Of a stretch of 64,000 bases of DNA, positions 5,334-39,712 are shown one piece after another. This DNA is from a virus (taxonomy: Duplodnaviria; Caudoviricetes): positions 14,266 through 78,265 of the IMG/VR virus record IMGVR_UViG_3300037743_000134. One strand, 5' to 3'. A model generated the notes under the pieces. The model saw nothing but the letters and a program-made list of their open reading frames with translations, ran no database searches and was not told the origin of the DNA. Within the stretch, counting starts at the first letter, position 1. Every line of letters starts with the position of its first letter. The translations under genes and the position numbers were made by a program.

Positions 5334-6224
5334 GTGGCAATCGGCGTCTGTTGGGACGGTCACGAATACACGGTGGGCAACGGGTGCCCCGTATGCGCGG
5401 TGAACAGAAACCGCGAACGTTACCGTCCGAAAGGACGCGGCAAGAAGCAAAAGACATGTCCGAATGGGCATGTGTACTTGTCGGGCCAGGGGTGCGTGGT
5501 CTGCGCGCGGGCGCGCTCCAATGAGCGCAGGCGTGCAGCGTCGCGTGCCCGTAGGCGTGCCCTACCGGAAACAAAAACGTGCCGACGTGGGCACACGTAC
5601 AAGCCGGGCAAGGGCTGCTACCAATGCCAGCTTGCATATTACGCCGAACGCAGACGGGCCGATCCAGAATGGCGCGCTCGCGCCAATGAACGTGGCCGCA
5701 AGTATGAACAGCGGCGATATGCCTTAGATGCGGAACACCGTGAGCGCCGCAAAGCTCGCGCCAAGCAAAAATGGTGGTCCGACGAAGAGCATCGCGAAAA
5801 GGCGAAGTCCAGCGCGAAAGAACGCAAGAAGCAGTATCGCTCAGACCCCGCATTCCGCGCAGCACAAGTGCGGGCTGAACGGGTGCGCCTTGATGCCATC
5901 TACGAGGACGCCGGGCGCCACGCGGCGCACCGCGAGAAACAGCGCTGGCGCAATCACATCAGACGCGCTCGTGTAGCGGGTACCGATTCGCCTGGCGTAA
6001 CCAAAGAAGAGTGGGCAGCAATATGCGCGCGCTTCGCGAATGACTGTGACGAGACGATCTGCGCGTATTGCAAAAGCCGACTCGCGGATACCATCGACCA
6101 CGTCGTTCCAATTGCGCGAGGTGGGCGCGATGCACCCGACAATGTCGTGCCAGCGTGCAAGAGCTGCAACAGCAGCAAGAACGCCAAGCTTCTGAGCGAG
6201 TGGAGACAGACCGCCGCTCTATAA
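5334..6224 (+). CDS. HNH endonuclease with three N-terminal CxxGH-x7-CxxC repeats
   Basis: CAYC...TIDHVVPIARGGRDAPDNVVPACKSCNSSK. Confidence 0.9.
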   Translation: MAIGVCWDGHEYTVGNGCPVCAVNRNRERYRPKGRGKKQKTCPNGHVYLSGQGCVVCARARSNERRRAASRARRRALPETKTCRRGHTYKPGKGCYQCQLAYYAERRRADPEWRARANERGRKYEQRRYALDAEHRERRKARAKQKWWSDEEHREKAKSSAKERKKQYRSDPAFRAAQVRAERVRLDAIYEDAGRHAAHREKQRWRNHIRRARVAGTDSPGVTKEEWAAICARFANDCDETICAYCKSRLADTIDHVVPIARGGRDAPDNVVPACKSCNSSKNAKLLSEWRQTAAL

Positions 6225-10031: not shown

Positions 10032-11117
10032 ATGTCGGACGCAAGCACCACGCGAATGCTCGAGGCGTACATCGAGCGCCGTGTTTCGCCCCAACTTTTC
10101 CTCTCGAGTTTCTTTCGCACGAGCCCCCGGAGTTTCCACAACTCCGAGCACGTCGAGGTCGATATTCGACGGGGCGAGCCGTACCTCGCGATTCCCGTGC
10201 AAAGCGTTACCTCCGGTGCGCGCAAGCACGAGGTGTCGCTGTACACGAACAAGAAATTCACGCCGCCCGTGTATGACCTCGAGGTCAGCATTTCGGCATG
10301 GAGCACGAGTCAGCGCCAACCGGGCATTACTCCTTTCCAGGATGTGAATTTTCGGCAGGCCGCAACGGACGAGGCCTTTCGCTCGCTCAACGAGCTCGAG
10401 GACATGCTCCGCCGCGCAGTCGAACTGCAGGCGTCGCAGATCTTCCAGACGGGCGTTGTCACGCTGACCGACGCGGCCAGCGCGACGATCTACACGCTCG
10501 ACTTCCAGGCGCGGCCTTCGCACTTCGTCATCACGACGCCGTGGGCGGCCGACGGCTCGACCGGCGATCCGCTGGGCGACATCGAGTCAATGGGCATCAA
10601 GATCCGCCGCGACGGAAAGATGAACGCTACGGACTTGGTCCTTGGCACGAGCGCGATGCAGCGCCTTTTGGCTAACGACGAGGTCAAGGCGCGCTTCGAT
10701 AATCGTGGGCTCGTTGCGCTCACGGAGATTCGCCCGGTATCGCGTCCAGACGGAGCTACGTTCTACGGCACGGTCGTAGTCGGTCACTACCGCTACAACC
10801 TGTGGATGTACGACGGGTACTTCATCGACCCGGCAACGCTCGAGCCGACGCCGTACGTTGGCGACACCAACGTCATCATGCTGGCCGAGCAGGGTCGTCG
10901 CGATCTGACCTTCGGATCGATCCCGATGTTCATGCCTCCCGACGCGCGCGCCGCGCAGTTCCTGCCGGCCCGCATGTCGAGCGTCGAGCAAGGCTTCGAT
11001 CTGACCACGAACATTTGGGTTTCCCCGGACGGCAAGCACTTGCACATGTCGGCCGGCACCCGGCCGCTGTGTGTGCCCACCGCGCTCGACACATTCGGCA
11101 CGCTCACGGTTGCGTGA
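10032..11117 (+). CDS. Major capsid protein, lambda gpE family
   Basis: 361 aa, FTPP, RRAVELQASQIFQTG, position in head operon. Confidence 0.88.
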   Translation: MSDASTTRMLEAYIERRVSPQLFLSSFFRTSPRSFHNSEHVEVDIRRGEPYLAIPVQSVTSGARKHEVSLYTNKKFTPPVYDLEVSISAWSTSQRQPGITPFQDVNFRQAATDEAFRSLNELEDMLRRAVELQASQIFQTGVVTLTDAASATIYTLDFQARPSHFVITTPWAADGSTGDPLGDIESMGIKIRRDGKMNATDLVLGTSAMQRLLANDEVKARFDNRGLVALTEIRPVSRPDGATFYGTVVVGHYRYNLWMYDGYFIDPATLEPTPYVGDTNVIMLAEQGRRDLTFGSIPMFMPPDARAAQFLPARMSSVEQGFDLTTNIWVSPDGKHLHMSAGTRPLCVPTALDTFGTLTVA

Positions 11118-12745: not shown

Positions 12746-14224
12746 ATGGTTGACGCATCAGCAGTAGCGCGCGTGCTCGGCATCGCGACGGAGTTCAAAG
12801 ACCTGCGCGCCGGCAGCGTGTTGTTTCTGCCGCAACGCATCGCTGTGTTTGCGCAAGGCTCGAGTGCCGTCACGTACAGTACCGCCAAGCGCCAAGTCAC
12901 GAGCGCCGCGGAAGCGGGAACCGTCTACGGTTTCGATTCGCCGATCAGTCTCATCACGCGCGAGCTGTTGCCGGTTAACGGCGATGGCGTCGGATCGATT
13001 CCTGTGACGATCTATCCGCTCGAGGACGGCTACGAGGGCGTTGCCGCGGCGGGCGACATCACTCCCGGCGGCACCGCCTCGAAGGCGTCAGCGTTTCGCG
13101 TGCGCGTGAGCGGGATTCTGTCCAACGAGTTCGTGGTGCCAGCGGGTGCCGTCAACGTGGCGAACACGATCGCGGCCATGGTCACGGCCATCAACGCCGT
13201 GCTGCACATGCCGGTGACGGCGTCGGACGGGACGACGAAGGTCGACCTCGATGCGACGTGGGCCGGCCCGACCGGAAACGATCTGGTCGTGGAAATCATT
13301 GGCGACCTGAATGGCGTGACGTTTGCCATCACGCAGCCGGTTGGCGGACTCGTCGACCCGGACATCACCGACGCGCTCGCGCAGATGGGCAACGTCTGGG
13401 AAACGATGGCGATCCAAGCGACGAGCGGCGTAACGGCAATCATCGACGAATTCCAGGAGTTCGGCGAAGGGCGTTGGGGAGAGCTCGTACGCAAGCCGCT
13501 GGTCATTTTCTCGGGCGCCACAACCGTCGATGCAAGCTCTCTCGTTTCCCTCGGCAATACCCGCAAAGACGATCGCATCAACAGCGCGCTTGTTGCGCCC
13601 GGTTCGGTCAACCTGCCCTTCGTCGTAGCGGCCCGCCAGCTCGCGCGTATCGCGAAGGTCGCAAACAACAACCCGCCGCGTGACTACGGCAGCCAGAAGG
13701 CAACCGGTCTGTTGCCCGGCGACGACGGCGATCAATGGGATTACCCGACGCGCGACATGGCAGTCAAGGGCGGGATATCGACGGTCGAAGTGCGCGACGG
13801 TGTCGTCAACGTCTCCGACGTCGTGACGTTCTATCACCCGGACGGCGAGGAGCCTCCCGCGTATCGGTACGTTTGCGACATCGTGAAGTTGCAAAACATT
13901 ATCTTCAACATCGACCTACTCTTTGCGAACGAAGAGTGGGACGGCGCGCCGCTCATCCCGGACGACCAGCCAACGGTCAACCCGTCCGCGCGAAAGCCGA
14001 AGTCGGCGAAGGCGTTGGTTAACGGCCTGCTCGATAACCTCGGCCTGCAAGCGATCATCAGCGACCCGGCGACGGCGAAGGCGAATACGACCGCGGTCAT
14101 CAATTCGGGCAACCCGAAGCGGCTCGACATCGAGGTGCTCGTGCAGCTCGCGGGCAACACGAACATCATCAGTGTTGGGCTGAGCTTCGGCTTCTTCTTT
14201 GGCTCACAAGCCGCGGTTGCCTGA
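12746..14224 (+). CDS. Contractile tail sheath protein (Mu gpL-like)
   Basis: LPQRIAVFAQG, YGFDSP, GGIST, YRYV..IVKLQN, NPKRLDI motifs. Confidence 0.9.
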   Translation: MVDASAVARVLGIATEFKDLRAGSVLFLPQRIAVFAQGSSAVTYSTAKRQVTSAAEAGTVYGFDSPISLITRELLPVNGDGVGSIPVTIYPLEDGYEGVAAAGDITPGGTASKASAFRVRVSGILSNEFVVPAGAVNVANTIAAMVTAINAVLHMPVTASDGTTKVDLDATWAGPTGNDLVVEIIGDLNGVTFAITQPVGGLVDPDITDALAQMGNVWETMAIQATSGVTAIIDEFQEFGEGRWGELVRKPLVIFSGATTVDASSLVSLGNTRKDDRINSALVAPGSVNLPFVVAARQLARIAKVANNNPPRDYGSQKATGLLPGDDGDQWDYPTRDMAVKGGISTVEVRDGVVNVSDVVTFYHPDGEEPPAYRYVCDIVKLQNIIFNIDLLFANEEWDGAPLIPDDQPTVNPSARKPKSAKALVNGLLDNLGLQAIISDPATAKANTTAVINSGNPKRLDIEVLVQLAGNTNIISVGLSFGFFFGSQAAVA

Positions 14225-14305: not shown

Positions 14306-14686
14306 ATGAGTGTCGGCGGATCGATCGAATCGGTCACGATCAAGGGTCGCACGTTTGCCGTTGCCGCAGACGCGGACGCCGCTCGCCAGCTCGGCGGCGC
14401 GTCAGCAGAAGTGCTGGCGAACGGGGACGGAACCGCGCGCATCGTGAAGACCAAAATTCCGTGGTTGATTAGCGGACTCGCACTCGTCATCAACAACGTG
14501 CGCGGCGACCTCGAGTTCCTACAGGAGATCGCCAACGGCTCCGTCTTCGTTGCGTGCGACATCACGTTTGCGGACGGCACGACGTATCAGGGCCAAGGCA
14601 CCGTTACCGGGGAGCTCCAGGCCGGCAGCCAGAACGCGACTGCCGAAGTCACGCTCTCAGGCGAAGGTCAGCTCACGAAACAGTGA
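14306..14686 (+). CDS. Tail tube protein
   Basis: 126 aa directly after sheath, GAAGGA RBS. Confidence 0.8.
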   Translation: MSVGGSIESVTIKGRTFAVAADADAARQLGGASAEVLANGDGTARIVKTKIPWLISGLALVINNVRGDLEFLQEIANGSVFVACDITFADGTTYQGQGTVTGELQAGSQNATAEVTLSGEGQLTKQ

Positions 14687-14728: not shown

Positions 14729-14771
14729 AAGCCGTCGCCGCAACACGCAACCCGTGCCGGCGACGGCTTTT
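14729..14771 (+). terminator. Intrinsic terminator after tail tube gene
   Basis: 12-bp stem AAGCCGTCGCCG(14729-14740)/CGGCGACGGCTT(14758-14769) ending in TTTT. Confidence 0.7.
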
Positions 14772-14783
14772 ATGCATTTGAGC

Positions 14784-14789
14784 TATAAT
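14784..14789 (+). promoter_or_regulatory. -10 element TATAAT 8 nt before GTG of HNH gene
   Basis: AGC-TATAAT-TCCGGACG-GTG. Confidence 0.55.
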
Positions 14790-14797
14790 TCCGGACG

Positions 14798-15619
14798 GTG
14801 AAAGTCTGTCGCAGGGGACATCGGTATGTCGTGCAACAGCGGTGCCCGGAGTGTGCGCGGGCGCGGCGCCGCGCGTGGTACGAGCGCAACAAAGAGCGGA
14901 CTCTTCGGACCAATAAGAAATGGGCAGCCGCAAACAAAGCGAAACGGAAAGCGCAACAACGGCGCGAGCACGAGAAAAACGCGGCAGCGTACAAGCGACG
15001 CACGCAGGAGTGGCGGCAGAAGAATTCTGAACGAGAAAAGACGACGCGGCGCCAAAGACGAGCGCGGCTCACATTGAAGCCGCCCGCAAAGAGCGTATGC
15101 ATACGAGGGCACTCCCGCGTTGTAGGTTTGGATTGTCCGGAATGTACCAAGTTGCGCATGCGCAAGCGCGGACCGCGCATTCAAGAGCAAGCGAGGCGGA
15201 CGACCAAAAGGCTTGGCGATATTGACGCGGTGCGCGCTAAGGAGCGAGCGTGGTACGCGGCGCATCGCGAAGAGAGTTGCGCTTCAGGGCGCGCTTGGCG
15301 AAAACGCAATAAAGACAAGACACGGCTAGCGCGACAGAGGCGCAGGGCTCGCCTTCGGGGCGCCGGTTCGCCTGGCGTGACGCCTGCCGAATTGGAGGCA
15401 TTGGTGGAGCAGTTCAATGGCTGCTGCGCGTACTGCGGAAAGCCCGGCACGACGATCGATCATGTCGTGCCGCTTTCAAAGGGTGGCCGCGACGAAATCG
15501 CCAATGTGCTCCCCGCGTGCAAGCCATGCAACTCGAGCAAGAACAACAGAGACTTATCAGAATGGCTAGCCAGCAAGGGCTACGCGGACCCGCGCGACAA
15601 GCATCGATTGAGTGCATAG
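14798..15619 (+). CDS. HNH endonuclease with two CxxGH-x7-CxxC repeats
   Basis: CAYCGKPGTTIDHVVPLSKGGRDEIANVLPACKPCNSSK. Confidence 0.9.
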   Translation: MKVCRRGHRYVVQQRCPECARARRRAWYERNKERTLRTNKKWAAANKAKRKAQQRREHEKNAAAYKRRTQEWRQKNSEREKTTRRQRRARLTLKPPAKSVCIRGHSRVVGLDCPECTKLRMRKRGPRIQEQARRTTKRLGDIDAVRAKERAWYAAHREESCASGRAWRKRNKDKTRLARQRRRARLRGAGSPGVTPAELEALVEQFNGCCAYCGKPGTTIDHVVPLSKGGRDEIANVLPACKPCNSSKNNRDLSEWLASKGYADPRDKHRLSA

Positions 15620-16325
15620 CGTGATCGTCCTAGCGGCGCTGGCAACGATACCATCGCGTGCGCACTTGCTGCCGCGTGTGCTCGCCTCGCTGCGCCCACA
15701 GGTGGACCGACTGCACGTCTATCTCAACGGCTACGCCAGCGTCCCTGAGTGCGTACGGGAGCTCGCCGACGAATATGTCCAACATGCGGACAACCGCGGG
15801 GCAGAGGCAAAGCTGCACTGGGCAAATACGCACGACGGACTTTATTGTTCGTGCGATGACGATCTCGTATACCCACCTCGGTACGTTGCCACAATGGTCG
15901 ACGCCGTCGCACGGTGGGACGGCCGCGCGATCGTCAGTGCACACGGGCGCGTGTATCTCGGCGCGCCGAGCGGTTGGCATAACGTCGCACCGAATAGCAT
16001 CGGCAACGTGCACAAGAACGTTCCATTTGGCCGATGGATAAATCACGCCGGCTCGGGCGTCATGACCTGGCAAACGCGGCACGTGCACATACCAAGCGAA
16101 TTCCCGGAGCGCAATCTCGTGGACGCGCAGATCGCAACGTGGGCGCAACGCGCGCGCGTGCCCATGTGGCTCGTACCGCATCCGGCGCGTTGGTTGCAAG
16201 CGCTCGCCTACCTCGACGCTAAGGGAATCTTCAAACAGTCGCAGCTCGATGGTCACAAGCGGCGCTCCGAGATCATTCGACGCCACGGCGTCGAGCACGG
16301 CTGGCAATTGTACGAGCTAACGTGA
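15612..16325 (+). CDS. GT-A fold glycosyltransferase (GT2-like)
   Basis: LATIPSR N-terminus, YCSCDDDLVYPP DxD motif. Confidence 0.8.
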   Translation: MHSVIVLAALATIPSRAHLLPRVLASLRPQVDRLHVYLNGYASVPECVRELADEYVQHADNRGAEAKLHWANTHDGLYCSCDDDLVYPPRYVATMVDAVARWDGRAIVSAHGRVYLGAPSGWHNVAPNSIGNVHKNVPFGRWINHAGSGVMTWQTRHVHIPSEFPERNLVDAQIATWAQRARVPMWLVPHPARWLQALAYLDAKGIFKQSQLDGHKRRSEIIRRHGVEHGWQLYELT

Positions 16326-17602
16326 CGCTACAGCGCTGGGATGTAATCAATGAGCTGCTCGGTCTGACGACTGAGAGGCGCTACCTCGAGATCGGCGTGC
16401 AGCGCGGCATCTGCGGGCGCAAAGTGCGTGCGCCAGAAAAGTGGGGCGTCGATCCTGATTACGCATCGAGCGCGACGCCCTACTACACGCGTATGGCGCG
16501 GCTCACTTCGGATGCATTCTTTGCTCAGCTAGACCCGCAGCAGCGCTTCGACGTTGTGCTCGTCGACGGATTGCACCACGCGGACCAGGTCTTACGCGAC
16601 GTCGACAACGTGCTGGCGCATCTGGCGCCGGGCGGGTTCATTGTCTTGCACGATTGCAACCCGCTCAGCGAGATAGCTCAGCGGGTGCCGCGCGCAACTG
16701 GCGTGTGGAATGGCGATTGCTGGAAAGCTATGGTTGCGCTGCGGCAACGTGGCGACGTCGAAGCGTTCACGGTCGACACGGACCACGGCGTCGGTATCGT
16801 GCGCAAACAAGCGAACCCCGGGCCGCTCCGGGACGTGCCGGCAGAGCTGACTTATGTCGTGTTCGAGGCGGACCGAGAACGATTGATTGGTCTCGTTGCT
16901 CCGCAGAGCTGGCGCGAGAGACTTGGCACGTGCTCGGGACTTGGGCGTGTCGTTGTGGTGTCAGCGATCCTTGGCCGCCGCGACGACGGGTGCGAGCTGC
17001 CCAAGGCGCACGACGTCGACGACTACGTAATGTTTTCGGACGGGCCTCCGCCAGCAGGCTGGCGCCACGTAGCGACGCATGCGGGCGCGGACGCGCGCGC
17101 GACAGCTCGACGAATCAAAACTCTGGCGCTGGAGCTTGAGCAAATCGCCGACGCCGACGTGGTTGTGTGGATCGACGGACGCATCAGGCCCACGGGCAGA
17201 GCGCTGCGGCCGCTGCTACGCGAGGCTTTGCGAGAATCTGACATCGCCTCATTCCCTCACCCCTGGCGCAATTGTGCGTACGCCGAGGCCCGCGAATGCG
17301 CCAGGCTTGGCCGTGCGCCAGTAGAAGCGCTGCACCGGCAGACGGCGGCGTACGAAGCCGAGGGCTTTCCGCGTGACGCCGGCCTGTGGAACACGATGGC
17401 CCTGGCCCGCAGGCGCACGCCTGCGATGATTGAATTCGGCCGTGCATGGTGGGCCGAGATCGAGCGGCACACGCAACGCGATCAGGTGTCGCTGCCTTAT
17501 CTGCTTTGGCGACATGGCATCACGTGCGGACGGCTCGGGAAGGACATCTACCGCAAACAGTCGAATCCGTATTTCGAGCGCGGACAGCATCGGCATGCGT
17601 GA
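16322..17602 (+). CDS. Fusion: class I SAM methyltransferase (Methyltransf_24-like) + DUF616/TOD1-MUCI70-like glycosyltransferase domain
   Basis: YLEIGV, FDVVLVDGLH, IVLHDC; C-half VWIDG, HPWRNCAYAE, RDQVSLPY. Confidence 0.8.
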   Translation: MTLQRWDVINELLGLTTERRYLEIGVQRGICGRKVRAPEKWGVDPDYASSATPYYTRMARLTSDAFFAQLDPQQRFDVVLVDGLHHADQVLRDVDNVLAHLAPGGFIVLHDCNPLSEIAQRVPRATGVWNGDCWKAMVALRQRGDVEAFTVDTDHGVGIVRKQANPGPLRDVPAELTYVVFEADRERLIGLVAPQSWRERLGTCSGLGRVVVVSAILGRRDDGCELPKAHDVDDYVMFSDGPPPAGWRHVATHAGADARATARRIKTLALELEQIADADVVVWIDGRIRPTGRALRPLLREALRESDIASFPHPWRNCAYAEARECARLGRAPVEALHRQTAAYEAEGFPRDAGLWNTMALARRRTPAMIEFGRAWWAEIERHTQRDQVSLPYLLWRHGITCGRLGKDIYRKQSNPYFERGQHRHA

Positions 17603-18551
17603 GATTTTCAAAGCGAGTCTCGCTGCGCTTACGGAACCGATCCGCGGACTTCGCGTTTTACTTTTCGGTTTCTCGGGTCCCGGGTTTCCTGGTGGCAACG
17701 GGCGAATCGAAGCAGTCGACTGGCTGCCGCAAGCCGGGCTCGAAGTTACCTACTCGAACGAGCTAGATCCCGAGCTCGAAGAAAAGCTGTCACGCCACTA
17801 CGACGTTTCGGTCATCTGCAACACGCGAGCCGGAGCCGTGCTCGGATACGATCGGCGCGTCTGGACGAGCGCCACCGAGTCCGTGTGGTGGTTTTGGGAT
17901 TTGCGCAACGGGGAAGTCGGAGCTCCACTCCGCGGCCGACCGCGGCATGTCTTTCTGTCGTACAACGGGCGCTGGACGTCACCGTCCGGCACCGTCTACG
18001 AGCCGCGACAATGGGCCCATGCGCTCGGCGCTGCGGTCCACTACTGCCCGCAGGGTGCACCGCTTCGCGAGCCCGTGACAGTGCCGGACGCGCCGCGCGT
18101 CCTATTCGTGGGCGACCTCGCGAATTCAACATACCATCGCGGCCGGCGTGAGATGTGCTCGGCATTGGGCGCCAAGGTTCTGAACGCGCGCGACCGCAAC
18201 GCGCGGCTCGCCATTGAGGCGCAGATGCCGGGCCTCTATTCGAGCTCGCGATATTGCCTGAGCATGTCGCCGCTCGCGCCTGGGTACACGAGTGTCCGCT
18301 CGTATTCGATTCTCGCATGCGGCGGGCTGATGCTGCTCCACCGGTTTCCCGGAGCTGACGAGATTTTCTCGGACGGTGAAAACGTGATCCTGTTTGACAC
18401 CGCCGAGGAAGCGATCGCTCGGGCAGCTGGCCTGGACGCCGACCCGGAGGAACGGGTGCGCATCGCAGCGGCAGGTAGATTGCTCCACGCGACGCGCCAC
18501 ACCGTCGCGCATCGAATCATTTCGATCTGCCGAGAGGTCACGGGTTGCTGA
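17595..18551 (+). CDS. GT-B glycosyltransferase, CgeB/Glyco_trans_1_2-like
   Basis: ATG 17595 in the 17430 frame; VLFVG, SVRSYSILACGGLMLL..F.DGENVILFD. Confidence 0.75.
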   Translation: MREIFKASLAALTEPIRGLRVLLFGFSGPGFPGGNGRIEAVDWLPQAGLEVTYSNELDPELEEKLSRHYDVSVICNTRAGAVLGYDRRVWTSATESVWWFWDLRNGEVGAPLRGRPRHVFLSYNGRWTSPSGTVYEPRQWAHALGAAVHYCPQGAPLREPVTVPDAPRVLFVGDLANSTYHRGRREMCSALGAKVLNARDRNARLAIEAQMPGLYSSSRYCLSMSPLAPGYTSVRSYSILACGGLMLLHRFPGADEIFSDGENVILFDTAEEAIARAAGLDADPEERVRIAAAGRLLHATRHTVAHRIISICREVTGC

Positions 18552-19186
18552 CCGTTGCGACGGCGATCTTCGGTCCTGACTATGAGCTACACGAGCCGCT
18601 ACATTCCTGGCCGGGGTGCCGTTTCGTTTGCTTTACCGATCGCCACGATCTGCGAGCGCGTGCGTGGAAAATCGTCATCCAGACACATGAGCTCACGCCA
18701 CGCCGGAGCAATCGTCACATCAAGGCGTTGCTTCATCGGTACGTCACGGGACCAACCCTCTACCTCGATGCCGAATTTCAAATCACCGAAGACCCGCGCC
18801 CGTGGGTCAACGCCGCGCTGAGCCGACACTGCTGGGCAGCAACGCGGCACCCGCAGCGCGACTGTCTTTTCTCCGAGGCACGTTACTGCTTGCGGAAGAA
18901 ATGCACGAGTTCGCCGGTCGAGCTGGCCGCGCAGATTCAACGCTACCGACTTGCCGGAATGCCGGAGCGTTTCGGACTCTGGGCGGGCGGCATCCTGGCC
19001 CGGCGCGGCGATCATCAGAGTGAGCAGATCGGCGAAACGTGGTGGAACGAAATCAGCCACGGCGCCGAACGTGATCAGATCAGTCTGCCATTTGTAGCGT
19101 GGTGTCTCGGGCTGCACCCGGCAGATATCCCGGGCGCCTACACATCGTTGCCCGGCGTGCTCAGGAAAAAGCGTGCAGCCAAGTAA
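18545..19186 (+). CDS. DUF616/TOD1-MUCI70-like glycosyltransferase
   Basis: FVCFTD, LYLDA, HPQRDCLFSE, RDQISLPFV; paralog of the 16322 C-half. Confidence 0.75.
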   Translation: MLTVATAIFGPDYELHEPLHSWPGCRFVCFTDRHDLRARAWKIVIQTHELTPRRSNRHIKALLHRYVTGPTLYLDAEFQITEDPRPWVNAALSRHCWAATRHPQRDCLFSEARYCLRKKCTSSPVELAAQIQRYRLAGMPERFGLWAGGILARRGDHQSEQIGETWWNEISHGAERDQISLPFVAWCLGLHPADIPGAYTSLPGVLRKKRAAK

Positions 19187-19728
19187 TGGACTTTGACAAG
19201 TACCGCCGGCTCGGCGACTACCATTGGCGCGAGTATGCGCGGCCGACCGTATATCGCGCGTACGTGGACGGCCTGCGCGACTGGGTCAAGGGCTCGGCGA
19301 TTCTGGACGTGGGCGCAGGCGACGGACTGATTGCGTACGTAATCGGCGCCACAGGGATCGAACTAGACCCGATCGCGGTAGCGCTCGCGCGGTCTCACGC
19401 GGTCGACGTAATCAAGGGCGACGCGGGCGCGTTACCGTTTCCCGCCGCGTCATTCGATACGGTCTTTCTCGGCGACGTAATTGAGCACCTCGAAGACCCG
19501 CTGCCCGCACTGCTCGAGGCGCGGCGCGTGCTGCGCAACGACGGGACGCTCTACGTCACAACGCCCCCCGAGCACACGCCGGTGCGCCCATACCACTATC
19601 GGGAATATACGCCGGACTCGTTACGCGAAACCGTCGAGCCGCTGGGGTTCGAACTCAGTGCGCCGATGTTCACGCGACACGATCGCATCCACGCAGCATT
19701 TAGCAAGACGTCCCATGCCGTTCGGTGA
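19186..19728 (+). CDS. Class I SAM-dependent methyltransferase
   Basis: TAATG coupling; ILDVGAGDG, FDTVFLGDVIEH, LLEARRVLR. Confidence 0.85.
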   Translation: MDFDKYRRLGDYHWREYARPTVYRAYVDGLRDWVKGSAILDVGAGDGLIAYVIGATGIELDPIAVALARSHAVDVIKGDAGALPFPAASFDTVFLGDVIEHLEDPLPALLEARRVLRNDGTLYVTTPPEHTPVRPYHYREYTPDSLRETVEPLGFELSAPMFTRHDRIHAAFSKTSHAVR

Positions 19729-20311
19729 CAACTGGCGCAAACAGGGTCCCGAATATTGGGACGCGATGGCCGCGCGCTGCGCCGACCTGCCGTTTAATGA
19801 TCTGCTTAGGTCCGAAGTCCTTGTGTGCGGATCTCTCATCGAGATCGGCTGTGGCGGCGGACACCTAGCGCAGGCGTTATTCGCGGCCGGCTACCACGGC
19901 ACGTATTGGGGCTGCGACATCTCGCCGGCCGCAGTCCAAGCGGCGCGCGCACGACTCGGCCCGGACGCTATCGTAGCTGTCGGTCAGTTCGAGCAGCTCT
20001 CTTGGATAGACACAGTCCCGCGCGCGGAGCTCGTCATAGCCCGGAGCGTCATTCAGCATCAGGAGCACTGGTTGCCGTTGGTCGATGCTGCGCTACGACA
20101 TGCGCCGCGCGTTGTTCTCGGCGTCAGCCGGGCGATCTACTTCAAGCCGACCGGCGAGCACTACGTGCAGAAGCGCGGCTCGTTCTTCGACGTGTGCATT
20201 TCGCTCGAAGCAATGGAGCGCGAGGCATCACAAGCGGGCATCGCGTGCAGCTTCCGTCATGTCGACGGACGGCGCGGACCCGAAGTCGTGATCGCGCTTA
20301 CGAGGGCGTAG
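19715..20311 (+). CDS. Class I SAM-dependent methyltransferase
   Basis: ATG 19715 in the 19481 frame; LIEIGCGGG, YWGCDIS, SVIQH. Confidence 0.82.
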   Translation: MPFGDNWRKQGPEYWDAMAARCADLPFNDLLRSEVLVCGSLIEIGCGGGHLAQALFAAGYHGTYWGCDISPAAVQAARARLGPDAIVAVGQFEQLSWIDTVPRAELVIARSVIQHQEHWLPLVDAALRHAPRVVLGVSRAIYFKPTGEHYVQKRGSFFDVCISLEAMEREASQAGIACSFRHVDGRRGPEVVIALTRA

Positions 20312-20324
20312 CGCGTGGCACTCG

Positions 20325-20333
20325 TGCTAGAAT
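20325..20333 (+). promoter_or_regulatory. Extended -10 (TGcTAGAAT) 7 nt before GTG of HNH gene
   Basis: TG-C-TAGAAT-ACACGAC-GTG. Confidence 0.6.
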
Positions 20334-20340
20334 ACACGAC

Positions 20341-21192
20341 GTGAAGCGGGCACCCAGAAGCGAAGAGCAAAAGCAGCGGGATCGCGAGTGTGCAAAGCGC
20401 TGGAAAGAACGTAACAAGGGTAGAGCAAAGGCTGCTCGGAGACGCTGGGTGCTAGCAAACCCAGAAAAGGTAAGAGCACAGAAGCGGCGATGGTATGCGC
20501 GGCACCGCGAGGAATGCCTGGCCTACCTAAAGAAACGCTACGCTGCGGTTCCCGAAAAAATCAAAGAGAGTGTCCGACGCACCCGGGCGAGCAAGCTGAA
20601 GAGGGCGAAGGCGCGCAAGCATCTGGAGAAGAGGCGCGCGTGGCGAGACAAGAACCGCGAAAAAATACGAGCGCAGCAGCGCGCACGTTACGCAGCGAAT
20701 CCGGCGAAGTACAAAGCTCAGCAACGGGCAATGCATGCCGCACATCCGGAACGGAAACGCTATGCGGCCAAGATGTACAACGCGGCAAACAGCGAGCGCA
20801 AAAAGGCATATTACAGGGAATACAATTCCAAGCACGCCGCGAAAAAATCGCGGGCATCGTTGCTGTGGCAGCACGCGAATCCTGAAAAAGCCAGGCTACA
20901 AAAGAAGCGTGCCATTCATAAAAGGCGAGCTCTGCTGAGAGATTCAGGGTCCACCGGCTTCACATCGGCGCAGTGGTTATCACTGGTGGAGCGCTTCGGT
21001 GGATGCTGCGCTTACTGCGGGAAACCTGGAACCACCATCGATCACGTTGTACCCATCGCGGCCGGCGGACGCGACGAGATCAGCAATGTTCTTCCCGCAT
21101 GCAAAAGCTGCAACGCGAGCAAGGGAAACAAGGTCCTGGCAATATGGCTTGCACAGAAAGGCTACGTGGACCCACGTAGCAAAGCAGCGTAA
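20341..21192 (+). CDS. HNH endonuclease, close paralog of 14798..15619
   Basis: CAYCGKPGTTIDHVVPIAAGGRDEISNVLPACKSCNASK; GTG 20341 in the 19825 frame. Confidence 0.9.
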   Translation: MKRAPRSEEQKQRDRECAKRWKERNKGRAKAARRRWVLANPEKVRAQKRRWYARHREECLAYLKKRYAAVPEKIKESVRRTRASKLKRAKARKHLEKRRAWRDKNREKIRAQQRARYAANPAKYKAQQRAMHAAHPERKRYAAKMYNAANSERKKAYYREYNSKHAAKKSRASLLWQHANPEKARLQKKRAIHKRRALLRDSGSTGFTSAQWLSLVERFGGCCAYCGKPGTTIDHVVPIAAGGRDEISNVLPACKSCNASKGNKVLAIWLAQKGYVDPRSKAA

Positions 21193-21194
21193 GC

Positions 21195-21737
21195 ATGTTA
21201 GTGACGGCCGTTCCGTTTGATGTCGAGCGCAACTTAGGCAGAGCCTACAACCAAACCATGGCCCGTCTGCTGCCGGGCGATTGGCTCTGCGGGATCGACC
21301 ACGACGTCGCATTCACGACAAAAGACTGGTTTCCGCAACTGCTCACGGCCATCGAATCGAAGCCCGACGCCGGCTTGATTACTGCGGTTACCAATCGCAT
21401 AGGGCGCCGAGAACAGGTCGTTCCGGGTGCGCCGGCTGGTCACGACATGCTTGAGCATCGAGCATTCGGAGCCGCACAGCGCGACCGTTACGGTGCAGCA
21501 CTAGAGGATATTACGGACGGTCCTGTCATCAGCGGCCTTCTGATGTGTTTGTCGCAACAGACGTGGCGCGCAATGGGCGGCTTCGCCGATGGGATGATGG
21601 GCGTCGACAACGAAGCCCATCGCAGTGTCCGCCGGATAGGTAAGCGCGTTTACCTCATGCGGGGTCTCTATCTCTGGCATCTTTATCGCGCGGACGGCAT
21701 CGGTCACACAAACGCACCGCGCGCGAAACGTAAGTAA
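21195..21737 (+). CDS. GT-A fold glycosyltransferase (GT2-like)
   Basis: NLGRAYN, LCGIDHDV (DxD), GGFADGMMGVDN, LWHLYR. Confidence 0.75.
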   Translation: MLVTAVPFDVERNLGRAYNQTMARLLPGDWLCGIDHDVAFTTKDWFPQLLTAIESKPDAGLITAVTNRIGRREQVVPGAPAGHDMLEHRAFGAAQRDRYGAALEDITDGPVISGLLMCLSQQTWRAMGGFADGMMGVDNEAHRSVRRIGKRVYLMRGLYLWHLYRADGIGHTNAPRAKRK

Positions 21738-21750
21738 AGGCAGGGCAACA

Positions 21751-22167
21751 ATGGCAGGCAAGGTAGTCGCCACGGAAGTGGCGGAGCAGGAGTTCGCGCG
21801 CTTTCTCGAGGCAATGGATCTCGCGGAGAAGTGCGACGCGAAAGGCCTCGACGTCGAGGACGCGAAGTCTCTCACCGACGTGAAGCGCACGATCATCAGC
21901 GCAATGGAGCGCGGCAATCTCGTGGTCGACGACAAGGGCCAGCCGGTCTACACGCCGAAGGCTGGCGACAACCGAAACCCGATCACGTTTCACGAGCCGA
22001 CGGGCGCCGACCTCATGGCGATCGATCAAGCCAAGAAGAGCGAGGACATGAAGCGCGCGTTTCAGTTACTCGGCGCGGTCACAGGCGAAACGCCAGCGCG
22101 ATTCGCGAAGATGCTCAACCGTGACATCGTCGTCTGTCAGGCAATCTTCGCACTTTTTTTAGGCTAG
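21751..22167 (+). CDS. Tail assembly chaperone (gpG-like / Mu gp41-like)
   Basis: ITFHEPTGADL motif; precedes tape measure gene; slippery site at 3' end. Confidence 0.8.
   Translation: MAGKVVATEVAEQEFARFLEAMDLAEKCDAKGLDVEDAKSLTDVKRTIISAMERGNLVVDDKGQPVYTPKAGDNRNPITFHEPTGADLMAIDQAKKSEDMKRAFQLLGAVTGETPARFAKMLNRDIVVCQAIFALFLG
22155..22161 (+). promoter_or_regulatory. -1 programmed ribosomal frameshift heptamer T TTT TTA
   Basis: In frame CTT TTT TTA GGC TAG; the -1 frame is open to 22394; hairpin CGCACG/CGTGCG at 22173-22189. Confidence 0.85.
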
Positions 22168-22394
22168 AGGTCCGCACGCTGCTCGTGCGCGGCGGCTATG
22201 ACTGGAAGCTCGAGCCGCACCGCGAGACCGGCGTAGCGACGCACACGCTGCCGAATGTCTACGGCGAGATGATGCTCCAGGTCTGCTCGGACTATCCCAA
22301 CGCGCCGCCAGCGCGGACGATGACGCTGAGCGAGATACGGTTTTTCTACGAGGGCTTGCGCGCAGGTTTGCGCAAGACAACAAAGCCAAAGTGA
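22161..22394 (+). CDS. Frameshifted C-terminal extension of tail chaperone (gpGT-like)
   Basis: The -1 frame continues RLEVRTLLVRGGYDW... and includes the 22185..22394 ORF. Confidence 0.75.
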   Translation, partial: RLEVRTLLVRGGYDWKLEPHRETGVATHTLPNVYGEMMLQVCSDYPNAPPARTMTLSEIRFFYEGLRAGLRKTTKPK

Positions 22395-22397
22395 CGC

Positions 22398-24434
22398 ATG
22401 GGCAAGTTTTCAATTAAGGCGCTGTTCAGCGGCGAGGATAAGGGCGTCGGGCGCATCATCTCGAAGATTGAAGGGCGACTCTCGCGGTTCGCGAAGGGCG
22501 CCACCGTGGGTTTCGGCTCGAGCATGAAAAAGGTTCTCGGCGCCGTCGGCGCTGGCGTCGTCGGCGCCGGCATTGCTGTGGCGGGCGCAGCCACTACGGC
22601 AGCGATTGCGCTCAAAGACGTGATCGAGACCGGCGTCGATTTCGAAAAGACCATGATCGGCGCGGCGGCAAAGTTCTCGCCTGCGTTCCGTCAGGGCACA
22701 GCAGAGTTTGCCAAGCTCGAAGCGGCCGCAAAGAAGATCGGCGAAACGACTGAGTTTTCCGCATCGCAAGGCGCGGCCGGTCTCAAGGATCTCGCAAGCG
22801 CGGGCTTTACATCGACGCAGGCGATCGCGGCACTGCCGCGCATCGTCGACCTTGCAACCGCTGCCGAAATCGAGCTCGACGCGGCGAGCAACATCGCAGC
22901 GAAGTCACTCGGTGCGTTTGGTTTGATGAGCGACGACGCTGCTCAGCTCGGCGCCAACCTGACGCGCATCACCGACGTCATGGCGCGCACCGCAGACGCA
23001 ACCGCGTCGAGCATGGAGGGCCTATTCGAGACCATCCAAGAGGGCGCGCCGGTCGCGAAGGCCGCGGGCGTTTCGCTCGAGACGTTTATGGCGCTCGCTG
23101 GTCAGCTCTCGCAAAGCGGCATCGAGGCGAGCGTCGCCGGTACGACACTCAAGAACGCAATGCTCATTCTCGCTGCGCCTACCGGCACAGCCGCGAAGGC
23201 GCTGAAAAAGCTCGGCATCCAGACGAAGGATTCGAAGGGCAATATGAGGGACATCATCGATGTCCTGGGTGAGCTCCAGACGAAGACGGCCAAGATGGGC
23301 ACGGGTCAGAAAGCCGGCGTGCTCGAGGAAATCTTCGGCAAGATTCCGATCGCTGGCGTTACATCGTTGCTCGATGCGGGATCGGAAAAGCTGCGCGGCT
23401 TGCGGGGCGAGCTTGAAAAGTCCGGCGGCTCGACCGCGCGCATGGCGGGCATCATGCGTGATGCGACCGCTGGCGATCTGAAAAACTTCTCGTCCGCCAT
23501 CGAATCGGTCAAGCTCGCCGTCTTCGACGTCGTGAAGGGACCGCTCAAAGACGTCGTCAGGAGCGTTACGGAATGGATGCGCGCCAACAAAGAACTGATC
23601 GCGGCGAGCATCAAGTCGTTTCTCGATACGATGATCGAAGGCGCCACATTCGTCCGCGACAACTGGGGCACCATCGCGCCGATCCTGAAGGGCATTGCGA
23701 TTGTGATCGGCGTGCTTGTCGCTGGCGCAACGCTGCTGTTCGCTCCGTTCTACGCCGTAGTCGTGGTGGTCGGGCTGCTAATCGGCAAGCTCGTGGAGTT
23801 CGGGGCATGGGTGATTTCGCTAAAGGGTTTCTGGTCTGCGTTCGGGAGCTTCTTTGTTGGGCTGTGGGAAATGATCAAGGGCGTCTTCGTCGGCGTCGTC
23901 GAGTTCCTTGTGGGTCTCGCGACGCTTTGGGTGGGGACGTACATGTCGCTCTGGTCTCCGTTTGCGCCGTTCTTCTCTGGACTGTGGGAAGGCATCAAGA
24001 GCATCTTCTCCGGCGCGTGGGACTTCATCGTCGCGGCAGCATTCGTTGTGCGCGATGCCTTTATGGCTGTCTGGGCACCGCTTGCGGGATTCTTCTCGGG
24101 CTTGTGGCAGGGCATCGTGGACACGTTCAACACGGTCGTTGGCCCGATTGTCAAAGTGATCGGTGGCGTGATCGACAAGGTCCGCAGCATCGGACGCGGG
24201 ACACTCGGCACGGAGACCGCGGAGGGCGAGTCGCCTGCGCCTGGCGCGGTGCCCGGCACGACACCACAGAAACAAGTCATCGCTCCCGGCGAGCGCGTGG
24301 CCAAGAGCATCAGCGAGAGCACGACCAGGGGCGAGGTTACGGTCAAGGCAACGAAGGGCACCGAGGCCAAGGTCAGCAAGCCCATGAGGGGACCCGGCGT
24401 CGGCCTGCGGGTCTCGCCCTCGGGCGCGTTCTGA
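22398..24434 (+). CDS. Tape measure protein (TP901-type core)
   Basis: TEFSASQGAAGLKDLASAG, AGTTLKN, C-terminal W/F-G-rich amphipathic repeats. Confidence 0.92.
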   Translation: MGKFSIKALFSGEDKGVGRIISKIEGRLSRFAKGATVGFGSSMKKVLGAVGAGVVGAGIAVAGAATTAAIALKDVIETGVDFEKTMIGAAAKFSPAFRQGTAEFAKLEAAAKKIGETTEFSASQGAAGLKDLASAGFTSTQAIAALPRIVDLATAAEIELDAASNIAAKSLGAFGLMSDDAAQLGANLTRITDVMARTADATASSMEGLFETIQEGAPVAKAAGVSLETFMALAGQLSQSGIEASVAGTTLKNAMLILAAPTGTAAKALKKLGIQTKDSKGNMRDIIDVLGELQTKTAKMGTGQKAGVLEEIFGKIPIAGVTSLLDAGSEKLRGLRGELEKSGGSTARMAGIMRDATAGDLKNFSSAIESVKLAVFDVVKGPLKDVVRSVTEWMRANKELIAASIKSFLDTMIEGATFVRDNWGTIAPILKGIAIVIGVLVAGATLLFAPFYAVVVVVGLLIGKLVEFGAWVISLKGFWSAFGSFFVGLWEMIKGVFVGVVEFLVGLATLWVGTYMSLWSPFAPFFSGLWEGIKSIFSGAWDFIVAAAFVVRDAFMAVWAPLAGFFSGLWQGIVDTFNTVVGPIVKVIGGVIDKVRSIGRGTLGTETAEGESPAPGAVPGTTPQKQVIAPGERVAKSISESTTRGEVTVKATKGTEAKVSKPMRGPGVGLRVSPSGAF

Positions 24435-24435
24435 C

Positions 24436-25761
24436 ATGCCCGACCTTCGCGAAGCCGCCTACACGTCGCCGCACGGGACGCGCATCACCTTTCACTACGA
24501 GGACGTCAGCCGCGAGACAACCAAGCGCGGGACGGCATTCGAATTCCCAGGCGTTGACGATGCGTACGTCCAGCACAAGGGCCACAGCTCGCGGCGCTAC
24601 CCGCTGCGCTGCATTTTCTGGGGCGAGATCCACGACCAGCTTGCGACGTCCTTCGAGGCGATCCTTCTCGAGTCCGGTATCGGTCGGCTCGAGCATCCGC
24701 TTTACGGCTCATTCGACGCCGTTCCGTTCGGCGACATCACGCGCCGCGACGACCTGAAAAACGAAGCGAACCAAACGATCGTCGAGGTCACGTTCTGGAC
24801 CACGATCCCGGCGCTCTATCCGCAAGCCGGGCAGAATCCGCAGAGTGAGATCCTCACGGCGCTCGACGACTTCGACATTGCGCAGGCGCAGCGCATCCAG
24901 GACGCAACGGATCTAGCGGGCGCGCTGAATCAATCCAACGCCAAGGCCACGACCAAAGGCATGGTCAAGAGCACGGGCGCAGCGCTGAAAAACAGCGCCC
25001 GCGCCGGCACGAGCGTGGGGCGCACGTTTGCCGGTCTGCAAAACGAAATCACGATCGGTATCGACGTTCTCATCACCGACCCGGCGACACTCGTCGCGAA
25101 AGTGACGGAGCTCGTACGCACGCCCGCGCGCGCATTCGTGTCAGTGCGGCAGCGGCTCGATGCTTACGCGGCGCTGGCGGCAAGCATATTCGCCTCGCCT
25201 GCCGGGCGGCCCGCGGATGCGCTCGTAAGCGGCACCGCGCTCGCGACGCGCACGACGCAGATCGGGAATGACTTTCACTTCGCTGACGTGTTCGCGTTGA
25301 GCACGCTTGCTGGCAGCGTGACGGTCGCAACGCGCGAGCCGCTCGACGACGCGGGACGCATCGTGCGCGGTCCAATCTTTCGCACCAAGCCCGAGGCGCT
25401 CACGGCAGCCGAGCTCATCCTTGCGCAGTTCGACGATGTAGTCGCTTGGCGTGACGGCTGCCTCGAAGCGCTCGAGACGATCCCTGGCGTGCACCGCTAT
25501 CAGGTCGACACTGGCGAGGCGTATCAGGCGATCCAGTCCGCCGTAGCGCTGACCGTGGGCCGGCTAATTGAGATCAGTTTCTCTCTCGTGCCAGAGCGCC
25601 GCATCGTGCTCGACCGGCCGCGGACCATCATCGACCTGTGCGCGGAGCTTTACGGCGAGGTCGACGACAAGCTCGACTTTCTCATTGCGAGCAACCAGTT
25701 GACGGGCAGCGAAATCCTCGAGCTCGAGCGCGGCAAGTCGATCTTGTACTACCCGGACTGA
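24436..25761 (+). CDS. Mu gpN-like 'DNA circularisation' / tail-baseplate protein
   Basis: LREAAYTSP.G, FEFPG, GRLEHPLYG; C-terminal LysM-like TIIDLCAELYG. Confidence 0.85.
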   Translation: MPDLREAAYTSPHGTRITFHYEDVSRETTKRGTAFEFPGVDDAYVQHKGHSSRRYPLRCIFWGEIHDQLATSFEAILLESGIGRLEHPLYGSFDAVPFGDITRRDDLKNEANQTIVEVTFWTTIPALYPQAGQNPQSEILTALDDFDIAQAQRIQDATDLAGALNQSNAKATTKGMVKSTGAALKNSARAGTSVGRTFAGLQNEITIGIDVLITDPATLVAKVTELVRTPARAFVSVRQRLDAYAALAASIFASPAGRPADALVSGTALATRTTQIGNDFHFADVFALSTLAGSVTVATREPLDDAGRIVRGPIFRTKPEALTAAELILAQFDDVVAWRDGCLEALETIPGVHRYQVDTGEAYQAIQSAVALTVGRLIEISFSLVPERRIVLDRPRTIIDLCAELYGEVDDKLDFLIASNQLTGSEILELERGKSILYYPD

Positions 25762-26012
25762 GCGCTACGGATCTGATCGTCGTGACGCAATAGAGAACCA
25801 AAAAGCGCATTCAATGTCTCTTGAGCTTTGCTCAATTCGGACAATGCATCCTCGTTGGTGCCGGCAAGGATATGTGCTCGGACGGCGTCGAGCTGGGTCC
25901 GTGCAGTGACTGTTATCCATTGCTGCAGTAATCGTTCGCGAGCAAGGCGTTCCGGATCGTCGCGCCAGGTTTTGTAGGCATCAACCATTATTTTCGTGCT
26001 CGTGTCTGACAT
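25749..26012 (-). CDS. Small moron-like protein, antisense to tail operon
   Basis: 87-aa ORF in AT-richer DNA with its own extended -10. Confidence 0.6.
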   Translation of the reverse strand: MSDTSTKIMVDAYKTWRDDPERLARERLLQQWITVTARTQLDAVRAHILAGTNEDALSELSKAQETLNALFGSLLRHDDQIRSAQSG

Positions 26013-26019
26013 GACGCGA

Positions 26020-26028
26020 AATATACCA
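26020..26028 (-). promoter_or_regulatory. Extended -10 (TGgTATATT) 7 nt before ATG at 26012
   Basis: Minus strand reads TG-G-TATATT-TCGCGTC-ATG. Confidence 0.55.
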
Positions 26029-26038
26029 CAGAGCGACG

Positions 26039-34761: not shown

Positions 34762-35186
34762 TGGCCGCAGGTGACGTAAGAAACGCGAGCACCAAGAGAG
34801 CACGCCCGCAAACAACCGACGACACGCCGACCGTCGTGTCCGCGTTGACGTACGCAAGCGTCCCGGATCTGACGTTGGTCGGCGTGCTTATTACCGGCGT
34901 TGCGCAGCGCACGGACGCGCCGGGCCTCGGAGCTTTCTACATCCACCATCGAGCTCGCGCTCGACGCTACGACGCTGACGGAACCGATCCGGGTTTAGTC
35001 GTGCTGTCGGGCGCAGACGACACACTAAACGTTACGGTTGGCGCCGGGACATATGCGATCGCCGTCATCGTCAGCACAAACGATCTGCAAGTGCAGATCA
35101 CAGGTGACCCAGGGGAAACCCTGCGCTGGATCTTGAAGGTCGAATACGAGTTAGTCGAGGAGACAGTCGACGTGGCGGCGGCGTGA
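34761..35186 (+). CDS. Fibre-associated hypothetical protein
   Basis: TAATG coupling; beta-rich, QITG...LRW. Confidence 0.6.
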   Translation: MAAGDVRNASTKRARPQTTDDTPTVVSALTYASVPDLTLVGVLITGVAQRTDAPGLGAFYIHHRARARRYDADGTDPGLVVLSGADDTLNVTVGAGTYAIAVIVSTNDLQVQITGDPGETLRWILKVEYELVEETVDVAAA

Positions 35187-35215
35187 TCGCGAGCAGACAA
35201 GGCAAGGGAAAAACC

Positions 35216-35425
35216 ATGCAACCAAAACCACCGATGCTTCTCCTCCCGCAACCGGTAGCGCAAGCGCTGGTGAACTACCTGCAGGAGCAGCCGTTCAAAC
35301 ACGTGCACCAGCTCATCGGCGCGCTGATGCAGCTGCAGCCTGCGCCGGAGCCAGCCGCGAAATCCGAGCCCGCCAACGGCGCCGAGAAACCTGCGGACGA
35401 GCAGGCCGAGGCGTCGGCGAACTGA
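35216..35425 (+). CDS. Small fibre-chaperone-like protein
   Basis: AAGGGA RBS; LVNYLQEQPFKHVHQLI. Confidence 0.6.
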   Translation: MQPKPPMLLLPQPVAQALVNYLQEQPFKHVHQLIGALMQLQPAPEPAAKSEPANGAEKPADEQAEASAN

Positions 35426-35448
35426 CCACGCTTTAGAAAACCAATCCC

Positions 35449-39709: not shown

Positions 39710-39712
39710 CCC

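Follow-up and report, generated by a model that had tools for sequence, protein, structure and literature searches.

A putative glycan-building cassette of glycosyltransferases and methyltransferases inserted in the virion operon of a temperate contractile-tailed phage

The cassette and its neighbours

The genes for the tail tube and the tail assembly chaperone (TAC) of the phage recorded in IMG/VR as IMGVR_UViG_3300037743_000134 are separated by a cassette of glycosyltransferase (GT) and methyltransferase (MTase) genes that may build a methylated glycan on proteins of the phage particle. The window analysed (64,000 nt) comprises bases 14266-78265 of this 78,265-bp virus record, which is rated complete by CheckV. 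The phage is a temperate, contractile-tailed myovirus, encoding a tyrosine integrase, a DnaB helicase and RecT. Its structural genes run in the order large terminase, portal, protease, major capsid, head closure, sheath, tube, the insertion, tail assembly chaperone, tape measure and baseplate. Positions 14798-21737 contain nine genes on the structural strand, i.e. seven enzymes and two HNH homing endonucleases. The contigs with which the window was compared are labelled by L-numbers (L003, L004, etc.); L004 is the closest relative, and was used as the reference for identities and for the ratio of non-synonymous to synonymous divergence (dN/dS). The enzymes and the structural genes to either side are:

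12746-14224: sheath gene.
14306-14686, plus strand: tail tube gene, the left edge of the insertion (PHROG 4699 tail tube, E 1e-34; 98% identical to the L004 tube).
15612-16325, plus strand: GT-A glycosyltransferase, similar to KfiA/heparosan synthase (GT45) by fold match, 237 aa; candidate priming enzyme.
16322-17602, plus strand: fusion of an O-methyltransferase (residues 1-165) and a DUF616/TOD1-MUCI70 GT-A domain (residues 208-426) (Pfam PF13578 and PF04765).
17595-18551, plus strand: CgeB-like GT-B glycosyltransferase (Pfam Glyco_trans_1_2, PF13524, 72.5 bits; cut-off 25).
18545-19186, plus strand: stand-alone DUF616/TOD1-MUCI70 glycosyltransferase, accessory (Pfam PF04765, 36.5 bits, cut-off 21.4; PHROG 26101, E 2.7e-19).
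19186-19728, plus strand: class I S-adenosylmethionine (SAM) methyltransferase, accessory (Pfam Methyltransf_11, 65 bits; NCBIfam matches sub-threshold only).
19715-20311, plus strand: class I SAM methyltransferase (MT12), accessory (Pfam Methyltransf_12/25, 42 bits).
21195-21737, plus strand: mini GT-A-like glycosyltransferase, 180 aa (PHROG 14179 'glycosyltransferase', 8.7e-19; PHROG 26101, C-terminal half, 1.5e-14).
21751-22167, plus strand: tail assembly chaperone, the right edge (Pfam Phage_TAC_7; PHROG 4648, E 1e-27).

The seven enzymes are soluble and form one translationally coupled block within the late, virion operon. The overlaps between genes are -8, -4, -8, -7, -1 and -14 nt (i.e. 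1-14 nt), and this tight packing had been pointed out in an original prediction that was made from the sequence alone. The same prediction counted six enzyme genes where there are seven, and correctly took the products to be free of membrane segments; no 19-residue window in any of the seven exceeds 1.6 on the Kyte-Doolittle scale. It further proposed five GT-like and three MTase domains, with one MTase fused to a DUF616 domain, and the Pfam, PHROG and structural matches taken together bear this out.

Domains and folds of the seven enzymes

None of the seven enzymes has an above-cut-off match in NCBIfam, and the evidence for their identity comes from Pfam, PHROG and predicted structure. Profile and structure searches place the domains among GTs and MTases, with fold matches for the GT45-like protein, the fusion and the CgeB-like protein.

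The model of the first GT (15612-16325; pLDDT 95.9) matches 8viw with a Foldseek E of 1.7e-18 and TMq of 0.80 at 20-22% sequence identity, and KfiA (5z8b) with an E of 8e-16. The closest folds are the GlcNAc-transferase domain of Pasteurella heparosan synthase 2 and E. coli KfiA (TMq 0.7-0.8). Residues 82-84 (DDD) are conserved in its family, which has 2374 representatives, many of them domains of giant GT2/GT4/methyltransferase multidomain proteins. The protein has no Pfam or NCBIfam match, so that it does not belong to GT45 by sequence profile. Because the fold and the DxD motif are present and the profile match is not, we file this protein as one that is predicted to work like KfiA and GT45, rather than as a member of the family.

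The fusion protein (model pLDDT 90.7) scores 52.2 bits against Methyltransf_24 (MT24; cut-off 26.3) and 29.0 bits against TOD1_MUCI70, formerly DUF616 (cut-off 21.4). Residues 1-165 match the cation-dependent O-methyltransferases COMT, CCoAOMT and TrmR with Z of 13-14, and the top matches in both Foldseek and VIA are O-methyltransferases; the PHROG label for the MT24 family is 'DNA methyltransferase'. D82, D111 and N113 do not vary among 25 homologues, and they may be the equivalents of the metal ligands of COMT. Residues 208-426 adopt a GT-A fold, for which the GT6 enzyme BoGT6a (4cj8) gives a Z of 13.6. The same MTase-DUF616 fusion is found in about 60 clusters. The stand-alone DUF616 protein (18545-19186) is 39% identical to the fused domain, and its gene is absent from L003 and L006. 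Both DUF616 domains align only to positions ~127-290 of the 314 of the PF04765 profile. Phage homologues of DUF616 are already labelled as glycosyltransferases in PHROG 26101.

The CgeB-like protein as a whole matches CgeB-family models in the structure atlas, with a TM of 0.76 over 298 residues. The clusters closest to it are viral, and neighbouring clusters carry the N-domain of the Maf flagellin GT. A search of PDB sequences with this protein gave no match, nor did searches with the mini-GT either as a single sequence or as a profile. The GT assignment of the mini-GT is the weakest domain call of the cassette. Its score against the GT2 Pfam family is sub-threshold (17.3 bits, cut-off 23.3). 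Within its virus-dominated family of ~180-aa proteins D35xD37 and H162 are invariant, and the neighbouring clusters in the atlas are 94-100% viral, some of them with GT2 families. Comparison of the three GT-A-like families with each other using hhalign gave no significant match.

Distribution of the cassette in related phages

In Shewanella phage SppYZU01, the sheath of which is 65% identical, nothing separates the tube and chaperone genes, and the same holds for about ten uncultured relatives with contigs that span capsid to baseplate. Because of this adjacency the cassette is an insertion relative to the cassette-free relatives, and the earlier statement that it interrupts two normally adjoining genes stands. 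Nine IMG/VR relatives carry it, always on the structural strand and among the virion genes, the junction being one of three. In L003, L004, L005, L006, L009 and L011 it lies between tube and TAC. In L007 and L008 it lies between the major capsid protein (MCP) and Hc1 (i.e. between the capsid region and head closure), and there the tube and chaperone genes touch. In L010 it follows directly after the tape measure gene (TMP).

The core gene set comprises the GT45-like protein, the MT24-DUF616 fusion, the CgeB-like protein and the mini-GT, while the second DUF616 protein and the two class I MTases are accessory. The order of the four core genes is kept in phages with structural proteins that are just 40-65% identical. 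The GT45-like gene stands alone in L187 and L190, coupled through ATGA to the tube and followed by the chaperone. The cassettes of relatives contain further tailoring genes, i.e. an NAD epimerase/4,6-dehydratase (L006), a DegT aminotransferase (L009), Sulfotransfer_2 proteins (L005 and L007) and additional small MTases, and protein P0015 of L005 is a triple fusion of GT-A, MTase and DUF616 domains. The Sulfotransfer_2 genes (L005:13949-14707 and L007:12425-13039) give E values of 2e-5 and 2e-7, which places them on the Pfam cut-off or slightly above it; it would be unusual for a phage to encode a sulfotransferase that acts on carbohydrates. We also note that in three lower-GC relatives the interval between tube and chaperone holds small reverse-strand genes, including those of an HTH-like 71-aa protein and of Cys-rich small proteins (L195:3507-4746, L196:4320-5891 and L198:11822-13456).

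A megablast search of INPHARED with 12.5 kb of the region returned no match, and neither the GT45-like nor the CgeB-like protein had a tblastn match in 50,697 phage records. Because these two genes are in no deposited phage isolate, the cassette system is known from metagenomes only. Scanning of viral contigs with a profile found at least 411 stretches homologous to MT24 (~40% identity), nearly all of them without other cassette genes at the sensitivity of tblastn. Those on L102-L171 belong mostly to low-GC aquatic phages, with contigs of 100-380 kb among them. Scanning of genome contigs with the fusion profile detected mostly bacterial Methyltransf_24 domains and one full fusion, in L039. The latter is a contig of a gammaproteobacterial metagenome-assembled genome (MAG), in which a mini-GT, two extra MT24-like methyltransferases, DUF616 and MT24 are encoded downstream of a phage GroEL-like chaperonin (L039:7280-10530), so forming a distant and reordered version of the MT24, DUF616 and mini-GT triad. 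In Escherichia phage ESCO5 (L097:5968-9112) mini-GT homologues open a run of four genes annotated as glycosyltransferases between the endolysin and the primase/helicase (86 deposited phage records).

Selection and recombination

All seven reading frames are intact. Comparison with L004 gives dN/dS of 0.12-0.21 for the cassette enzymes, with dS up to 1.6, while dS for the capsid, tube and sheath genes is 0.19-0.64. The alignment of positions 15627-24421 with L004 is mosaic; the cassette and chaperone are 71-74% identical in DNA sequence and the tape measure cannot be aligned, whereas both flanks are 88-92% identical. Given the low dN/dS, the raised dS and the contrast in identity between flank and block, the genes are functional and under purifying selection, and the block has been swapped by recombination and is not in decay. 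There is a further breakpoint within the cassette, as MT12 (dN 0.054, dS 0.47) resembles the flanks. Trees of cassette proteins and of structural proteins were for the most part unresolved.

Homing endonucleases and the upstream hairpin

Two genes within the interval do not belong to the putative glycan pathway, and they have a paralogue elsewhere in the window:

14729-14790, plus strand: terminator-like hairpin (dG -27.7 kcal/mol, z -4.98), followed by TATAAT 8 nt before the start of HNH2.
14798-15619, plus strand: HNH homing endonuclease HNH2 (Pfam HNH, 48 bits); a clean insertion relative to L004.
20341-21192, plus strand: HNH homing endonuclease HNH3 (Pfam HNH, 45 bits); an insertion relative to L004.
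5334-6224: HNH1, paralogue of HNH2 and HNH3.

When compared with L004, each of the three genes proves to be cleanly inserted at a junction between genes. The three proteins are 30-41% identical overall and have long N-termini with Arg/Lys-rich repeats. HNH2 and HNH3 are 41% identical overall, and 70% over the C-terminal 78 residues. The original prediction passed over both HNH genes of the interval, neither of which is in L004, and its starting point at 14729 is the non-coding hairpin. L004 lacks the hairpin, and the first GT gene there starts 8 nt past the stop codon of the tube. From this comparison the hairpin and TATAAT are parts of the HNH insertion, and the two HNH genes appear to be later selfish insertions with their own promoter-like sites. 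They may promote exchange of the cassette among phages. Further HNH_3-type genes are present at L098:10979-11632 and on the minus strand of the window at 52703-53425.

Two other differences between relatives lie in the tail genes. A stretch of ~270 bp between two baseplate hub genes (25764-26037), with a reverse-strand open reading frame of 87 aa (25749-26012), is absent from L004 and looks like another small moron insertion. The match to the sheath in L192, L193, L194, L197 and L200 is ~250-300 nt longer than the query and falls into two tblastn pieces, which suggests that an extra domain is inserted in the sheath of these phages.

Comparison with known systems

Comparable cassettes are those of the mycobacteriophages Corndog, Che8 and Myrna, and the GT and O-methyltransferase genes of Corndog and cluster O are reported to modify both the capsid and the tube of the tail (Freeman et al. 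2023, as cited in PMC11600133 and PMC12363180). In Corndog the O-methyltransferase gp35 and three GTs (gp35-38) are encoded between portal and protease (layout in PMC4351075). Both here and in Corndog an O-methyltransferase and several soluble GT genes lie on the same strand inside the operon of virion structural genes, with enzymes that are not themselves virion components, and the O-methyltransferase of the cassette shares with gp35 the PF13578/TylF-like family. However, no protein of the cassette has detectable sequence similarity to those of Corndog (best BLASTP E 0.74), the GT families here are GT45-like, GT116-like and CgeB-like, and the insertion site is different. Corndog is an actinobacterial siphovirus, whereas this phage is a temperate myovirus with relatives that infect Gammaproteobacteria. 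The capsid and tube glycans of the Corndog type are proven, whereas those of the phage described here are predicted.

A homologous triad is encoded by gp39-gp40 of Cellulophaga phage phi12:1 (PHROG 27561 and PHROG 26101), with Methyltransf_24 followed by DUF616 fused to a mini GT-A, at 31-33% identity. It lies in the head module, between a minor capsid protein and the prohead protease. This is a siphovirus of Bacteroidota with two genes only, lacking GT45-like or CgeB-like proteins, and the products are annotated as 'DNA methylase' and 'putative glycosyltransferase'.

In the chlorovirus PBCV-1 the protein A064R has two rhamnosyltransferase domains and a 2-O-methyltransferase domain that act on the capsid glycan (PMC7826918). 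Like the fusion described here it is a virus-encoded, soluble, multidomain GT/MTase protein, and its domain 1 is a structural neighbour of the DUF616 domain (2p6w; Z 12.3 over 169 residues), the similarity being at the level of the fold only. It differs in belonging to a eukaryotic virus and host, in making an N-linked glycan and in the order of its domains. In plants MUCI70/RGGAT1 is a proven galacturonosyltransferase and the founder of GT116; it resides in the Golgi membrane, where it synthesizes the RG-I backbone of pectin, and this activity is known from the plant enzyme only. Both phage DUF616 domains are above the cut-off of PF04765, the family to which MUCI70 belongs, and the fused domain has the GT-A fold of a nucleotide-sugar transferase. 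The original prediction considered a DUF616 protein in such a role to be new. This was overstated, given that MUCI70 is a GT116 galacturonosyltransferase, that PHROG 26101 is labelled glycosyltransferase, and that GT and O-methyltransferase genes in a structural operon have the backing of the cluster O mycobacteriophages. Lastly, the CgeB/YkvP spore-maturation proteins of Bacillus share the Pfam family PF13524 and the fold of the whole protein with the CgeB-like GT; these are bacterial spore-crust proteins.

Discussion

The cassette is, as judged from its gene content, a glycan-building pathway, because the versions in relatives carry a sugar dehydratase, an aminotransferase or a sulfotransferase. 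The best single reading is that it acts late and in the cytoplasm to glycosylate and O-methylate virion proteins, a proposal for which we find the balance of probability to be even. The GT45-like enzyme would prime the acceptor with a hexosamine-type sugar taken from a host UDP-sugar; the priming role is suggested because this is the sole cassette gene that is found alone at the same junction (L187 and L190). Chain extension would then be the task of the two DUF616/GT116-like domains, of the CgeB-like GT-B and of the mini GT-A, and the sugars would be capped with methyl groups by the COMT/TylF-type O-methyltransferase of the fusion together with the two class I MTases. Relatives would tailor the same scaffold with 6-deoxy or amino sugars and sulfate. 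Candidate acceptors are the capsid, sheath, tube or fibres, the capsid being encoded at 10032-11117 and the fibre candidates at 33298-41329. Retention of the cassette in the virion operon at three junctions favours a virion target, and the independent MT24/DUF616/mini-GT triad in the Cellulophaga head module also favours it.

A number of observations weigh against this. Comparison of tube, capsid and sheath in cassette-bearing and cassette-free relatives revealed no specific Ser/Thr-rich extension or C-terminal tail; two columns of the MCP (T206 and T359) are enriched with the cassette, an association that is confounded by phylogeny. Pfam analysis of ten tail-fibre and unknown structural proteins found no family and no acceptor candidate, and a scan of the virion proteins for Ser and Thr showed just the ordinary enrichment of fibre-like proteins. 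Homologues of the enzymes are encoded outside structural modules, i.e. those of the mini-GT in a cluster of four GTs beside the primase in Phapecoctavirus, the triad beside GroEL in the MAG contig L039, and DUF616 in a 13-gene GT/MTase cluster among the auxiliary genes of cyanophage S-SCSM1. The tube-TAC junction attracts morons in general (L195, L196 and L198), which makes the position by itself weak evidence. In addition the phage is temperate, a strong hairpin and TATAAT box precede the block in this genome, proteins could equally be the substrates of the two class I MTases, and any virion glycan in this phage is a prediction. The original prediction placed a methylated oligosaccharide on the sheath or tube, or on Ser/Thr-rich appendage proteins. 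The soluble GTs and MTases, the coupled block, its insertion and retention in the virion module, and the tailoring genes are all in keeping with the pathway that it envisaged, while no Ser/Thr extension was found in tube, capsid or sheath that would mark the acceptor.

The enzymes might instead modify the host envelope, altering precursors of lipopolysaccharide, capsule or exopolysaccharide on the cytoplasmic face, either in the lysogen, with superinfection exclusion as the outcome, or at a late stage of infection, which would keep the progeny from sticking to debris. The presence of integrase and RecT in a temperate phage is consistent with this, as is the similarity of the first GT to the capsule-polymer GlcNAc transferases KfiA and PmHS2. 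Polysaccharides are the substrates of the GT116 and sulfotransferase families, and the tube-TAC junction serves as a moron site in other relatives. The hairpin and TATAAT ahead of the block could permit moron-like expression; however, they are part of the HNH insertion, and L004, in which the first GT gene is coupled to that of the tube, has neither. The block is not beside the integrase, which is ~28 kb away, and is kept in the late operon at three junctions. Moreover, the genome was searched for GtrA (PF04138), a Wzx-type flippase (PF01943) and other GT2 proteins and none was found, as the original prediction had stated for GtrA and flippase, and it encodes no polymerase or membrane protein of this kind. 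None of the features of a Gtr-type or O-antigen module (GtrA, Wzx/Wzy, a membrane GT, an int-att neighbour) is present. We regard modification of the envelope as unlikely. Hypermodification of the DNA, with a glycan built on a modified base as a defence against restriction, seems to us the most improbable explanation. Phage GTs are classically DNA-modifying, the PHROG label of the MT24 family points the same way, and multi-sugar DNA glycans have reportedly been found in some phages. Yet the genome contains no thymidylate-synthase-like hydroxymethylase (PF00303) and no C5 DNA MTase (PF00145); a search for TET/JBP (PF12851) was also without a match, its control being silent as well. The MT24 fold is that of a COMT/CCoAOMT/TylF-type O-methyltransferase, and neither the late-operon position nor tailoring by sulfotransferase, DegT and dehydratase fits with a role in DNA. 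Both the O-antigen and the DNA explanations are weakened because the enzymes are soluble, because the genome lacks GtrA, Wzx and other GT2 proteins, hydroxymethylase and C5 MTase, and because the integrase is distant.

Soluble enzymes require a macromolecular acceptor in the cytoplasm, and this could also be a protein outside the virion, i.e. host pilin, flagellin or another receptor (thereby masking it), or a non-structural protein of the phage. The CgeB family (Glyco_trans_1_2) is tied to glycosylation of self-assembling surface proteins, and there is the Maf flagellin-GT N-domain in neighbouring clusters. Conserved embedding in the virion operon is explained more simply by virion targets, and we consider such acceptors improbable. 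Finally the cassette might be cargo, whether neutral or selfish, that confers no benefit on the phage and rides as a mobile island with homing endonucleases into permissive junctions. HNH genes flank and interrupt it here and one adjoins it in L009, the block of cassette, TAC and TMP has been exchanged (71-74% DNA identity, compared with 88-92% at the flanks), and the tube-TAC junction accepts unrelated morons. However, L004 has the cassette without any HNH gene, the seven reading frames are intact with dN/dS of 0.12-0.21, and the order of the four-gene core is kept although structural proteins are 40-65% identical. This makes selfish cargo very improbable in our judgement.

To our knowledge virion glycosylation has been proven solely in a few mycobacteriophages, where it shields the particles from antibodies. 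If glycosylation and O-methylation of virion proteins does occur in this myovirus lineage, which is related to phages of Shewanella, Aeromonas, Vibrio and Acinetobacter, the coating of particles with sugars would be a strategy general to phages. It would also provide the first function in a prokaryotic virus for the GT116-like (DUF616), CgeB-like and 180-aa mini-GT families. More tentatively, and with rather less confidence than in the glycosylation itself, the cassette could be a modular and exchangeable glycan island that gives a variable sugar coat to the virions of a clade of temperate phages with contractile tails and hosts of Gram-negative type. Outside the actinobacteriophages no earlier case of virion glycosylation would precede it, the enzymes would come from families with no previous link to the glycosylation of proteins, and HNH-aided swapping of whole cassettes would be a means of antigenic or surface variation. 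The natural variants, i.e. the single GT, the four-gene core, and the forms with methyl, sulfate or amino-sugar tailoring, would then constitute a ready series with which to study the effect of virion glycans on particle stability, adsorption, and evasion of immunity and defence.

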